A stretch of DNA of 64,000 nt, from assembly GCA_903813345.2 (NCBI GenBank), contig CAIIXF020000001.1, forward strand, positions 21,018,001 to 21,082,000, given 5' to 3'. The DNA is from Owenia fusiformis (lineage: Eukaryota). The notes under the pieces are model-generated. The model saw only the letters and a program-made list of their open reading frames with translations. It was not told the origin of the DNA and did not search any database. Below, in pieces: positions 3,240 to 9,200 of the stretch (the stretch's first letter is position 1; each line of letters starts with the position of its first letter). A program made the position numbers and the translations under genes.

Positions 3240-6200
3240 TGCTCTGTCCAAATATCCCGTTGTACTTGATAGAAGACAATGCAAAACCAATCAACAATAC
3301 AACAAGTCTACATACAATGCAACAGACGTATTCACCAATCAAATACCTCCGACACAATGTAATCCAGCAGACAACAAGTAATACTACAGCGCCATCTTTG
3401 TTTGACCAAGTGTGGAATCAGACAACAACTGTACCATTGTTTTTGATTCTGGTCTTGTTTCCACTGATGAACTTTAAATCTCCAACATTCTTCACAAAAT
3501 TCAACTCACTAGGTATGTATGTTATGATATTTGTTCAATTTTGAATACAATTTGAAAATTTAAGTTTGGAAGATGTAGATATACTTAGGTTTTTACCCCT
3601 TCTCCAACTATTTTTAAGTTTAAGACTATGGATGTACTATATATCATATATACTTGTTTTCAAAATAATACTGTAAAAGATATTAGCAAATTAAATGTAT
3701 TGCGCCAAAGTCTTGGTTTTGTTGAAATAGTCATTTGTCATTTCCTTTCTGAACTTTCTCAGCCTTTCAACTAAATGTATGTATCAAACCATAGGGAGGG
3801 ACTAGATCAACAAAAGATGGCAGCATTAGTTTGTCCATTTATATCTTCTGTTTATATTCCTACCCAGTCTATATGCATTAAACCCTTGCTATAGTAGTAT
3901 CCTATGAAAGTGTATAGACATACATTGTAAAGTAAAAACATCTTGATTTATAAACCTCCCTGTGCTGTATTTTTTTCTCCAGATTGCTCTAAAAGCTAAG
4001 GAATATTAGAAGATTGATAATAAGTGCGTTTGTTTCAGGAACGATCTCTGTGCTTTATCTGCTCACATTTACTACAATCAAGGGAGTCCGTTGGGGCTTC
4101 CATCTGGATTTCAACCCTGCACATGTTAACACATATGTACCTGGTAAGTTAGAGCTTTATATCATATGTCTATATTAATATCAAATGGACAAATGTAGAC
4201 TATGAGGGCTGTTTCAAAAGTTATGTAATGAGGGACTCTAAGGTTGCTAAGATACAAGGGTGATACAAGTTCTAATTGCTGTCACTCAAGTACTGTTTGT
4301 GCAACATACTGTATTTTATATGACCCATGTTTCAAATTGGACTTTTTTTTTTATTGTATTCTATTCTTCGGGTTACAATAAGTATATTTTGTTACACAAC
4401 ACAACAAATCTTTTATTTAATTTGGAACCAGGTATGGCTTGTGGTCACTACTTTATTTGTTGATACTGCATGTATATTACAAGCTATTCAGCAGAAGATG
4501 TGTCTCATGCAGTATGTAATACAGATTGTATGCTATGTTAAAATTGTTGTTCGATTGATATCAAGATGGTTGGTCATCATTAAAACCAAAGATGCTATTC
4601 GACTGAAGTCGATGCCCTTTGGAAAGGTATGTAACCACCTCTGAACCTATCGGCACCAGTCAAAGGTAAACTCAACTTGATGCAACAATGAATTATTTAA
4701 GAATTTAATTTAAAAATTGGAGTTAACTGTTGCTGGACCAAGCCCAGAATGATTGATTAAACTCCTAAAACTCACTCACTACAAGGCCAAAAAACTTTGC
4801 TCAACTCAACCGGCACATCACGCTACATACCTTTATTATGAACCATGCCTCTCTACACTTCACTGCACATACCATGGTGTATAGAAAACATTAATTTTAT
4901 TCTTAAATCGCTTTGCTCAAATGAATATAAATAAAACAATTGTTTATTGGAGCTTACTTGACATTTATCTTAATTTAGCCCCAAGAATCAACAAGCCATA
5001 ATTATCCAAAATGTCAACACCTGCCATTTGTTACAGGTGCCAAACACCAACCACCAACCACTGGTTGGTGACCATAATGACATGAAAATAACATTTTAAA
5101 ATGAGCTTTATTTTGCAGATTATATACAGTATTTGAAATAATTTTATTTCAGAATTTGAAACTACATTATTTACGATGACAGGAATCCTTTCCCTGGGGC
5201 TGTTCATCCACAATGCAATCATTAGCATTATGAGGACCCACTCTAATCCTAAAGCTGTTGTATGTGTTGTGTATACCTTCCTATTTAGCATGTAGCATAC
5301 CACATTGATGATTATGTCACTCATATTCACAATACTACAGATATAGTATTAAATAATAACATGTGTGTAATAATTTCTCTCTGACAGTATCTGGAGAGTC
5401 TTTTATTATTTGTTCACATCTCACAATGGCATCCTAGTGATCCCAGCTAATCTAGTTTCTCCTGTTCTGTGTTGGGACTTAGAAATGTGATAATGAGACC
5501 TCTTTCCCATGACTTGTTTTATGAGAAGACAAATTGTATTGTGCTATTTGATTGACATGATCATTGTGGTATATTTTGGATTGGAATGAACTTTTCATCT
5601 GCTTGTGTTATAGTGCTGTTAACCAATTTATTAATATTTAATATATTGTTGTTTTTAATTTGTGTTTTGGGGGTTTAAACTAACTTAATATGGTGCTTAG
5701 CTTACTGTGGTAGTTGTAATCAATTAACATTTGCTTTTACTCTAAAACATTCAACATCAGCCATAGAGATGTTGCTCAGTGATAGAGCTGATACTATCTT
5801 GTAATTTAAGATTAAGGAGATCTGGCTTAAATCCTTAATTGAAGATCATTCCTTTAAACTTTAAATTTTAAGATCATACTCTGAGAGAAAAAACTATTCC
5901 AGTTTTCACACTGAAAGAAACACTTATGTTGCTGGACAATTCTTATTAGGACTCATTAGAAAATTAAGATGGCTTCAGACTTGGTGTCCAGTTGCACATA
6001 GTTTTACTGTTAAAAGAAAACTCTCATTTGATCTTTGTCTGTAGATTGTATGGAGAATAGGATTAGTCAGTAGTTGAATTAACCTATTAACATAGTTATT
6101 AACTAATATAACATATAACATTGTTTTTGCATTGTGTGTATCTCAACAACTAAATGCCTCTCTTATATATAGGTAAATGTTGGATAAATGGAAAATTATC

Positions 6201-9200
6201 AATAAGTCAAATGTGATTGCAAACTTAAATATTATGCCATACAGGGATGCTGCCTATTAATGTGTACTAGGTTCTGTGACTAGCCAGTGATTTCAGAGGG
6301 GTAGTCACTAAAGAGAGGTGTTCAACAGAAAGAAATGTAGTCATGTTTGACTTATGGTATTTACTATTTTTTCCCTAAAGCATGCTTGTTTTGTTTTAAT
6401 TAGAGTTCGAGTTCTCCTTCTTTGCTTTGAGTGGGACTATGGCCCTTGCCTATTTTATACATAACTGTGTACTGTCAATCCTCCGCAATCAAAAAAATCC
6501 AGAAAATAGTGTAAGTAGATTAAATGGGGGTTAGCTTCAAATAGAATTACAAAAAGTTTCTTAGAACAGTCTAAATATTATTTTCAATATAAAGTTTCTA
6601 CCATTGACCTACTACATGTATTGTGCAATTCTCCGATTAAAATTATTATATACCAAGTCGGTATGTTTTAATTTGTGAAAATATTGTTTTCCCTGCATGT
6701 CAAAGTTTAAGATTAATGAAGAATTATATTTTGGTAAAATAAAAGTACATACGAGGGTTGATCATAAAGTTCTCATAATATCTCTCTAATTTCTTTATTT
6801 TTCAATATTTTCCTTTGAAATTTTCACAGAATATGCAGCATGGAATGTTTTATTAATCCAACAAACAATATTTACAATAACAGAAATATTAAATAAGAAA
6901 TAGTTGCCATAGTAACTTGAAATCAAGGCACCCGAGGCAAATAAAAAAACTAGCTAGAATAGCCCCCATTAACCATGTTTAAATACAATATAAGTTGTCA
7001 AATGAGCTATCAAACACATTAAATTGTCAAATAATATGGGCTCTCGACTGTTGTGAACTATTATAATGGTCAGGTGAATTGTATGATCTCATAATGGATG
7101 ATTGTTATGCTTCATTAGAAGTGACTGTTAGACCCCGTGACTGTTTTGTCAAATATCCCGAGGAAAATTGATTTTGCCCCTTTAGTTCATTTTTAACATG
7201 TACAGACCATACACAGGGTGTCATTTTGCTGATATCTTAGCAATATATTTGTTTTAGACCATGTTTAGTCTGACCAGAGGATCTTACAAACTTAACATAA
7301 CATTTTATCTGTATGAATTTTATTTTTCTGAAGATCTCTGCATCTATCGCATTCTCTTACTCAGTCATTTCTGATCATTAAATTTGAGTCTCAGACTCTG
7401 GTATCACATCTAACGGAGCATGAAAGCACCCCTTTTGACATCACACAATTTACACAATCGGTTTATTTAATTGTTAAAGCACTTTACAACATATTCAAGT
7501 TAACATTTTAACGTGTTTGGTAATTCATGAGAGTTTATTATGTATGTAAACATGGTTAATTAAGCTCATTCTCTCAATTATTTTTATTTGCCCTGAGTGC
7601 CTTGATTTCCAGTTACTATGGCAACAATTTCTTATTTAATATTTCTGTTAAACTAAATATTTTTTGCTGAATTAATAAGACATTCTATGCTGCACATTCT
7701 GTGAAAATTTCATTAGAATATATTGAAATAAAAAAATTAGAGAGATATTATGAGAACTTTATGATCAACCCTCGTATGTTCAAAACTACATAAAATTAGA
7801 CTTATGTTGTATTCCAGGGAAGAGACCTGACCATAGCATACATACTGGTAGCCCTCACATACCTTTACATTGGGGTATTCTTCTTCGCCACCTTTCCTTT
7901 ACACAAATACTGCATAGAAGATGTAAGTACAGCTACTGTCAATTGGAGAAAAATATCTACCCTACTTCAAATTTCAAATTATCGTTCAAATAGTGTTTTC
8001 AATACTAATTTAATTTTTTAAGCACTTTTGTAATACCATATAATAATCGAAAAACATAATTATGCTGTGATTATTTTATTCCAGAATTTTTTAAACAATT
8101 TCCTGAAATCAGATACTCTATCAGTCGTAGCCAGAGTTGGATTGTTCTTCCAAATGGTGACTGTATTCCCTCTGCTCATCTATATATTCCGTCTACAGTT
8201 CATGCACAGCATGTTTGGGGCCATATATCCCAGGTGAGTTGCTTTATACAAGGGTGGATCAAAAAGTTTCTCACCTTTATATATTTTGTCTGTCTAGGTA
8301 ATATCTCAAGTACCAGTTGACAGATTTGGGTAGTGTACATCTGCTCAAGAAAATTGATGGGCACTTTACTTTCAAAATGTAAACTATTTTGCATAAAACA
8401 ATGTAGCCTTTGATAACTGAAATACTAACTCTTTAATTGATTTGGTATATGCTGATGCTTTGATGACAAAATTGCCTCTAAACTCAAAATTGAATAGTTA
8501 TTTATGTAAATGTACTTTTTGATAACTTGAATACCACTTACCAGATTTGGTCCTTTTATAGGACAGTGTATTATAAGCATTGGGCATCTGCTCGGGAACA
8601 AATTTTCCATATGGCTGTACCAAATTACATTTTTTCTGAGACCCAGAAACTAAATATACAGTGTAGTAGCAATATAGATGAAGCTCTTTTAAAGTAGAGA
8701 TGTCAAATTTTTGAAAAAAGTGCATTATAGCTTAGCACTCTTGTATTCCTGGTATCTTTCTCCAGCTTCAGCCATGAATGATGTATGAACCTCATTGAAG
8801 TGTGGTTGGAGGTTTGCTTTCACCTTTTCCATCCATACTGCCAGTTTTGGACGTTGTTCAGTCAAATATCCCTTACCATATGCCTCTAGTTGGCTTAGCT
8901 CACAAACACAATGGAGGTCAGCAATTGTTAATTTTGAACCTGCCAGGAATGGGTTGGCTTTCAACCATATTGTCTCCAAATTGTCTAACATTGCCTCATA
9001 GTTACTCTTGGCTGTTGACTCATCAATGCTTCCTCCCCCAAACTGGAATCAACAATATTTATCTGTAGGCTTCAAAGAGAAATTGTTAGAATACTACAAT
9101 AAAGTACGTAATCATAAACAAATACAAAACATGATGCGTGAAAAGCCTTATGCCAGGGTTGTTTCCACTTACCTGTAGTTTTTATGTATAATGCTAATTC

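Follow-up and report, generated by a model that had tools for sequence, protein, structure and literature searches.

Tandem TM6 exons in the predicted SLC38A9 orthologue of Owenia fusiformis and TM6 isoform pairs in other animals

Introduction

Alternative exons that exchange a membrane segment of a transporter, either one with an APC/LeuT fold or one for cationic amino acids, are known from SLC12A1 (NKCC2), where exon 4 occurs in the mutually exclusive versions A, B and F, as well as from SLC7A2 with its forms CAT-2A and CAT-2B, and in both genes the exchange changes ion or arginine affinity. Here we describe a pair of 107-nt exons in a 64,000-nucleotide stretch of the Owenia fusiformis genome (the window; assembly GCA_903813345.2, contig CAIIXF020000001.1, positions 21,018,001 to 21,082,000, forward strand), each of which encodes transmembrane segment (TM) 6 of the predicted orthologue of SLC38A9, the protein that links lysosomal arginine to Rag-mTORC1. 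The two exons are located on the plus strand at 5153-5259 (exon A) and 6404-6510 (exon B), in coordinates of the window. NKCC2 and CAT-2 belong to other families and exchange other segments, namely TM2 in the former and a loop region in the latter, and they possess neither the signalling transceptor role of SLC38A9 nor its N-plug.

Two broader classes of exon choice provide further comparisons. Tandem duplicated exon substitution in human genes has been described as rare, mostly ancient and highly expressed (PMC9741552). The Owenia locus shares with this class neighboring homologous exons that agree in length and phase and of which exactly one is included, while that work concerns human genes and the vertebrate SLC38A9 sampled here has a single Cys-type exon. 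RNA structure can also guide exclusive splicing via docking and selector sites, as described for insect Dscam1 or 14-3-3zeta (PMC6071210). The Owenia exons resemble these systems in being tandem homologues of which one is chosen, but differ from them in that no convincing competing pairings were apparent in the three introns concerned.

The closest counterparts are isoform pairs in the RefSeq annotation of SLC38A9 ('neutral amino acid transporter 9-like') from other animals. Like the Owenia pair, these differ in the homologous 36-residue exon, which ends just before a conserved x-R-D-L motif, and carry Cys in one copy and Ala, Gly or Ser in the other at the position of zebrafish Cys363. The Owenia pair is more diverged, with 21 of 36 residues different as compared to 8-16 in the RefSeq pairs, and unlike the latter it has the Ala copy as the major form in three of four RNA runs and a Cys copy that is unannotated, while the RefSeq isoforms of the other animals are automatic predictions. 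A literature search, with subscription journals and supplements outside its reach, gave no paper on alternative TM6 exons of SLC38A9 among those listed. An earlier inspection of the window (the sequence-only reading) had stated that no description of such a pair was known, which holds for the searchable papers but not for the databases, where the homologous pair is already annotated in the form of RefSeq isoforms.

Results

Exon structure and reading frame

Exons A and B are each preceded by AG with a pyrimidine-rich tract upstream and followed by GT, with the donor sequences gtatgt for exon A and gtaagt for exon B. They are separated by 1144 nt and both run from phase 1 to phase 0, their first codon being completed by G4143, the last base of the constitutive upstream exon, and their last base coinciding with a codon boundary. 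This upstream exon (4039-4143, plus strand) encodes TM5 and loop 5-6 and corresponds to helix 328-345 of an AlphaFold2 (AF2) model of the protein described below; its start was placed at 4039 rather than 4038 because the AG of the intron sits at 4037-4038. The constitutive downstream exon (7818-7922, plus strand), which takes part in the junctions 5259>7818 and 7922>8085, encodes TM7 (AF2 helix 394-422).

Inclusion of either A or B alone leaves the frame open through the next two exons. Translation of the two other possible joins revealed a stop 24 nt into exon B when both exons are included and a stop at the end of exon 7818-7922 when both are skipped, in agreement with the rule of the sequence-only reading that exactly one of the two must be used. 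The coordinates, lengths, phases and splice sites that it had given for the exons, as well as the peptides it had quoted, were correct to the base. No third copy of the TM6 exon was detected in the 64-kb window by tblastn with both peptides.

Exon usage in RNA

Four of 15 listed sequencing runs were analyzed, of which X13, X14 and X15 comprise raw stranded RNA-seq reads assigned by species label, while X1 comprises contigs only; the threshold for listing a junction was 3 reads or a contig. The junction from the upstream exon into exon A, 4143>5153, for which the coordinate predicted from the sequence was right, was covered by 58, 48 and 45 reads in X13, X14 and X15, respectively, and by an X1 contig with a depth of 250.8. 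The corresponding values for the junction from exon A to the downstream exon (5259>7818) were 68, 47 and 49 reads and a contig depth of 284. The junction from the upstream exon into exon B (4143>6404) was represented by 0, 1 and 0 reads in X13, X14 and X15 and by an X1 contig with a depth of 182.8.

Sequencing depth followed the same pattern. In X13-15 it was 2-3 over exon B and 29-39 in the bin of exon A, with an intron background of 1-2. In X1, which is taken as cDNA because it contains spliced contigs, the exon-B contig reached a depth of 475.6 at position 6444, about ten times that of the intron contigs (around 12-70), and the bin depth was 395 over exon B vs 329 over exon A. The share of exon A thus amounted to approximately 95% or more in X13-15, while the ratio of A to B in X1 was roughly 55:45 to 60:40. 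Exon A predominates in three of the four runs and is also the version found in the deposited protein. The X1 junction contig together with the depth over exon B indicates that B is a real exon that is minor in one sample set and accounts for about 40-45% in another. One common variant was observed in each exon, 5253 A>G in exon A and 6444 C>G in exon B, and both are synonymous.

Use of both exons, as proposed from the sequence, was borne out to the extent that both are joined to the upstream exon and A also to the downstream exon, but the junction from exon B to the downstream exon (6510>7818) was listed in none of the four runs; we infer a complete mRNA containing exon B. Neither an A-to-B junction (5259>6404) nor one that skips both exons (4143>7818) reached the listing threshold in the four runs, where rarer events of this kind are possible. 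Apart from junction 6510>7818, the mutually exclusive use of A and B is well supported.

Enforcement of exclusive inclusion

The reading frame is probably the main factor that enforces exclusivity. Since 107 is not a multiple of three, inclusion of both exons or of neither would place a premature stop ahead of later junctions, and nonsense-mediated decay would remove the resulting frame-broken transcripts; this combination is the simplest form of enforcement. Incompatibility of U12-type and U2-type sites was rejected, as all sites are GT-AG with U2-like donors, and steric exclusion was rejected on account of the 1144 nt of the intron between A and B. A scan of 4144-7817 for inverted repeats returned 19 inverted pairs, among which the only long ones were the arms of a foldback element, while the others were AT-rich and 14-27 nt in length. 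The search for docking/selector pairings in the flanking introns that the sequence-only reading had suggested yielded no convincing competing pairings in the three introns of this one sequence.

The foldback element lies at 6747-7779 in the intron between exon B and exon 7818-7922. Its arms (6747-7000 and 7528-7779) are about 250 nt long and 81-92% complementary, and the element is transposon-like, present in high copy and read on both strands in RNA. If folded in the pre-mRNA, it would bring the donor of exon B near the acceptor at 7818. A second unusual element, a core of approximately 30 nt within 5003-5040, is located 116 nt upstream of exon A and showed an X1 bin depth of up to 68,000 as well as hundreds of reads per RNA run, mostly opposite in orientation to the exon reads of the gene, with flanking loose ends that agree poorly. 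Its appearance is that of a small RNA or of the conserved core of a dispersed repeat that is abundant.

Identity of the gene and of the encoded segment

A protein of 569 aa deposited for O. fusiformis as an unnamed product (P0001) is identical to the exons in the window and contains exon A as residues 362-397. It was the sole match among 8 candidates in a search with the open frame of exon A, while the corresponding search with exon B gave one match among 4 candidates that was not from Owenia, and no Owenia protein with exon B was found in the protein collection. The Owenia gene model thus is without exon B.

In comparisons of P0001 with solved structures only zebrafish SLC38A9 chains passed (E = 2.4e-126 for 7kgv and 5e-121), and the Pfam domain Aa_trans (PF01490) was detected with E = 4e-23. 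The AF2 model of P0001, which represents the exon A form, has a mean predicted local distance difference test score (pLDDT) of 79 and a predicted template-modelling score (pTM) of 0.76. It adopts a LeuT-like fold with 11 TM segments, and its best fold matches were 7kgv and 6c08 with target-normalised template-modelling scores of 0.84-0.87 at 40-42% identity. Among the best 120 of 891 homologues (E <= 1e-20), every entry to which its source gives a specific name is a transporter 9 or SLC38A9 by that name, and the rest are unnamed or generic. The TM1 sequence 'iwntmmgts' of P0001 aligns identically with zebrafish SLC38A9, in which the WNTMM and GTS motifs of TM1 are described as serving arginine binding (10.1101/288233), and the N-terminal stretch P-D-H-V-V-P-S of P0001, in the region of the Rag-binding P-D-H motif, aligns with zebrafish P74-S80. 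By these matches the gene in the window is the O. fusiformis orthologue of SLC38A9; the zebrafish match, the Aa_trans domain and the fold all agree with the assignment made earlier.

The peptide of exon A matches residues 342-372 of zebrafish SLC38A9 in the PDB with E = 0.0014 and that of exon B residues 342-376 with E = 5.5e-6. The report on the zebrafish structure places R344 on loop 5-6 and P348 on TM6a, and gives the carbonyl of A357 as a predicted Na1 ligand (10.1101/288233). Over exon A, the AF2 model exhibits a helix at 365-377, a break at 378-380 and a second helix at 381-389. The alignment to zebrafish residues together with this helix-break-helix arrangement indicates that the exon encodes the whole of TM6, comprising TM6a, the unwound hinge and TM6b, which is where the sequence-only reading had placed it. 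Exon A is the divergent version, with the sequence FIHNA, Ala at the position of zebrafish Cys363 and Gly at that of A357, while exon B is the consensus-like version, with FIHNC and Cys at the Cys363 position.

Divergence and constraint between exons A and B

Identity between the two exons amounts to 50 of 107 nt at the DNA level and to 15 of 36 aa in the encoded peptides. In a tblastn search over the window their cross match reached E = 6e-9, while all other matches had E >= 0.35, and on this evidence A and B are homologous. Broken down by codon position, identity was 19, 25 and 7 of 36 for first, second and third positions, respectively, which places third positions at or below the random level, and Nei-Gojobori estimates gave a saturated pS of 1.03 and a pN of 0.39. 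The FIHN core had been singled out from the sequence as kept despite the nucleotide divergence, and indeed all four of its codons differ at the third position. Even residues common to A and B use different codons, and there has been no recent gene conversion in the Owenia pair.

Exon B shares 25 of 36 residues with Lingula, and nearly all of the best 120 of 891 homologues carry a B-like TM6. Because synonymous sites are saturated and exon B is close to orthologues in other phyla, both copies are old and constrained. Judged from this saturation, the constrained replacement sites and the proximity of exon B to orthologues in other phyla, both copies are very probably functional.

TM6 isoform pairs in other animals

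To place the Owenia pair in a wider context, 30 of the 90%-identity clusters of homologues were examined for isoforms. RefSeq isoforms of equal length whose differences are confined to the homologous 36 residues were observed in 12 pairings as well as in 8 further pairings. They include the hemichordates Ptychodera flava and Saccoglossus kowalevskii, the cephalochordate Branchiostoma lanceolatum together with two Branchiostoma hybrid annotation sets, the sea stars Patiria miniata, Asterias rubens, A. amurensis and Acanthaster planci, and the other echinoderms Apostichopus japonicus, Antedon mediterranea, Strongylocentrotus purpuratus, Lytechinus variegatus and L. pictus. In Diadema both exon types are present in separate records, and the comparison there is limited to the TM6 segment. 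Among heterodont bivalves, TM6 isoforms were found in Mya arenaria and, in three variants, in Ruditapes philippinarum. The Ruditapes records P0029, P0170 and P0171 represent three TM6 exon versions of the Cys, Cys and Ser types. The Ala-type exon of Mya closely matches the only annotated exon of Dreissena, and the bivalve exon cluster therefore predates those genera. The recurrence of SLC38A9 TM6 isoform pairs across echinoderms, hemichordates, amphioxus and two heterodont clams is new here.

A second variant was also looked for among those listed cluster members that have a recognisable TM6 segment, a search that covered annotation only and not genomes. No second TM6 type was present among the listed bivalve members from pectinids (9), C. 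virginica (2), Mercenaria (2), Ostrea (2), Saccostrea (3) and Mytilus (8), or among the 15 listed of 128 members from Crassostrea gigas/angulata. The same was true of the listed members from Pomacea (2), Limulus (9), Tachypleus (9), Oculina (3), Montipora (13), Lingula (2), Tubulanus (2) and Styela (2). In current annotation, a single exon type is found in vertebrates, tunicates, the sampled chelicerates, corals, pteriomorph bivalves, the gastropod, the brachiopod and the nemertean, with the sampled vertebrate SLC38A9 exon being of the Cys type.

A tree of 74 exon peptides over 36 columns groups the copies by phylum, and a common origin of the RefSeq and Owenia pairs is not evident from it. 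Owenia exon A sits on a long branch (1.74 vs 0.29 for B), and the best tree places it as sister to B, a grouping that is unsupported (55/0). A single clade of all non-Cys exons was rejected at a cost of 50 log-likelihood units (approximately unbiased test, p = 0.019), the group having been named post hoc on 36 columns. The tree favours repeated duplication of the same TM6 exon. The alternative is one old duplication after which both copies co-evolved with the rest of each protein, and 36 columns cannot decide between the two.

Remaining exons and other features of the window

The SLC38A9 gene extends beyond the exons described above. The constitutive exon at 3240-3512 (plus strand), with a 5' border fixed by the AG at 3238-3239, encodes luminal loop 3-4 and TM4 as well as the first part of TM5, and its translation matches P0001 at residues ~236-327. 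It is joined to the next exon by junction 3512>4039 (57, 36 and 57 reads in X13-15 and a contig in X1). The exons further 5' are located beyond the window, and loose ends of reads at 3239 carry upstream-exon sequence. Following the TM7 exon, junction 7922>8085 (62, 44 and 62 reads in X13-15) leads to a constitutive exon at 8085-8233 (plus strand) that encodes loop 7-8 and TM8, with loose ends past 8233 running into the next exon. The last two exons, placed by frame only, are inside the open frames 13312-13482 and 14680-14910.

A glutathione S-transferase gene with several exons at 8728-11629 on the minus strand, with domains GST_C at 8728-9048 and GST_N at 11354-11629, is located within the long SLC38A9 intron that spans from 8234 to ~13300. 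Upstream of exon 3240-3512, a single open frame of 480 aa on the minus strand (324-1763) contains C-type lectin and F5/8 type C (discoidin) domains as well as a hydrophobic stretch, and probably lies inside another SLC38A9 intron. The last SLC38A9 intron harbors a minisatellite at 13732-14617 with 40 copies of a 22-nt unit (91% matches), and a second repeat array with units of 135-151 nt is present at 10419-11109. Rfam and ARAGORN agree on a tRNA-Cys (GCA) at 27916-27988 on the plus strand. A G+C-richer part at 49343-61444 (plus strand) comprises very large open frames rich in Gln, Pro and Met, including one of 2107 aa at 55121-61444. A Pfam scan of the two frames 49343-50752 and 52869-53219 detected no domain in them, and the frames in this part possibly encode a large low-complexity nuclear regulator.

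Discussion

The comparison of isoform pairs directed attention to one residue of the exon. Position 22, which corresponds to zebrafish Cys363, differs in 16 of the 17 pairs from five lineages, with Cys in one copy and Ala, Gly or Ser in the other, and the Owenia exons follow this pattern with Ala in A and Cys in B. In zebrafish SLC38A9 with the N-plug inserted, the plug is described as wedged between TM1 and TM6 with the carbonyl of its residue Ile84 bound to Cys363 on TM6, and mutants of the plug as transporting arginine faster (PMC9994763). The same report states that the N-plug region is also required for Rag GTPase binding and proposes a ball-and-chain model governed by luminal arginine (PMC9994763). 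Since Cys363 contacts the N-plug and position 22 is toggled between the copies, exon choice is suggested to tune the hold on the plug and with it the set-point of sensing. Like the recurrence across phyla, the connection of the exon pair with this contact residue is new here. The Ala form encoded by exon A would hold the inhibitory N-plug less tightly than the Cys form encoded by exon B, and a looser plug would shift the arginine set-point for transport as well as for Rag-mTORC1 signalling. Na+ coupling could be influenced in addition by the difference between Gly and Ala at the position of zebrafish A357, the predicted Na1 carbonyl. We tentatively propose that the two TM6 versions tune the gating and signalling of the transceptor rather than bringing about a wholesale change of substrate, an interpretation that is plausible without yet being probable.

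Several observations weigh against this picture of two functional exons that tune the transceptor. Substantial use of exon B was seen in one run, X1, which consists of contigs only and for which the RNA label is a guess, and the B-to-downstream junction is missing from the lists of all four runs. Position 22 is also not alone in being toggled, as each of the five representative pairs differs at position 27 as well as at 22. One or more positions of this kind would arise by chance with a probability of 0.17 if shuffled uniformly and of 0.64 if column variability is used as a weight, so that the recurrence of position 22 alone is not significant. In species with a single exon the residue at this position varies (Cys in 28, Ala in 9, Ser in 2, Gly in 1 and Phe in 1 of 41). 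Furthermore, the N-plug region of the Owenia protein is 11 residues shorter than that of zebrafish, without the H81-E82 (His-Glu) tip, and has AF2 pLDDT values of 52-66. With a plug this short and of such low confidence, a contact of the Cys363 type may therefore be absent in Owenia.

The sequence-only reading had suggested a possible switch of amino-acid specificity or of the sensing input to mTORC1. In such a switch the two TM6 versions would reshape the central binding site, to which TM1 and TM6 contribute their unwound parts, and the isoforms would transport or sense distinct amino acids or differ in their affinity for a common set. The exon does cover the TM6 hinge, and the 21 of 36 positions at which A and B differ include the hinge flanks at 16-17, which are Gly-Leu in A and Ala-Tyr in B. 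The hinge core F-I-H-N is identical in both exons, however, while the differences that recur among lineages (positions 8, 9, 12, 22 and 27) lie outside of it, and in the cytosol-open structure TM6 is described as having no part in the recognition of arginine at the TM1a site (10.1101/288233, legend to Fig. S7). A specificity switch appears unlikely, and, going by the residues that differ, tuning of the hold on the N-plug may be considered at least as plausible.

Less likely still is that the exons are biochemically equivalent and are kept for the regulation of expression, for instance via tissue-specific splicing enhancers or splicing-coupled dosage, with the protein differences reflecting neutral drift tolerated by a membrane helix. 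The strong difference in usage between sample sets fits this explanation, as do the many conservative hydrophobic swaps and the permutation test, which singles out no position. Synonymous sites have nevertheless had time to saturate while both copies stayed open and under constraint, and drift is a poor explanation for the doubling of this exon in at least five lineages, each of which shows a split into Cys and non-Cys copies.

That exon B represents a minor duplicate, leaky or in decay, with exon A carrying the gene function and the B reads reflecting splicing noise, is very improbable: the junction reads in X13-15 (0/1/0 for B vs 45-58 for A), the depth of 2-3 over an intron background of 1-2, the deposited A-type protein and the unlisted 3' junction of B would fit, but the depth of the X1 junction contig (182.8 for B vs 250.8 for A), an exon contig of 475.6 at about tenfold the intron contigs, the intact exon with its strong splice sites, and its position nearest to orthologues (25/36 with Lingula, branch 0.29 vs 1.74), which requires long purifying selection, do not.

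Taken as a whole, the best explanation of the locus is a tandem pair of TM6 exons with exclusivity enforced by the reading frame, both of them functional and acting to tune gating and signalling, and our confidence in this combination is evenly balanced. A further-reaching conjecture, which we regard as doubtful, is that many non-vertebrate bilaterians possess a TM6 splicing switch in SLC38A9, ancient or repeatedly evolved, that would add or remove the thiol latching the inhibitory, Rag-binding N-plug and so provide two set-points chosen by tissue or stage.

The Owenia exons and their counterparts bear on the way in which the signalling threshold of SLC38A9 depends on its transport cycle and on the 'ball and chain' at its N-terminus, as they provide natural TM6 pairs in at least five animal lineages with Cys vs a small residue at the position of the N-plug contact. 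They also constitute a case for comparative biology, in which the same TM6 exon has been doubled either repeatedly or once in early bilaterians.

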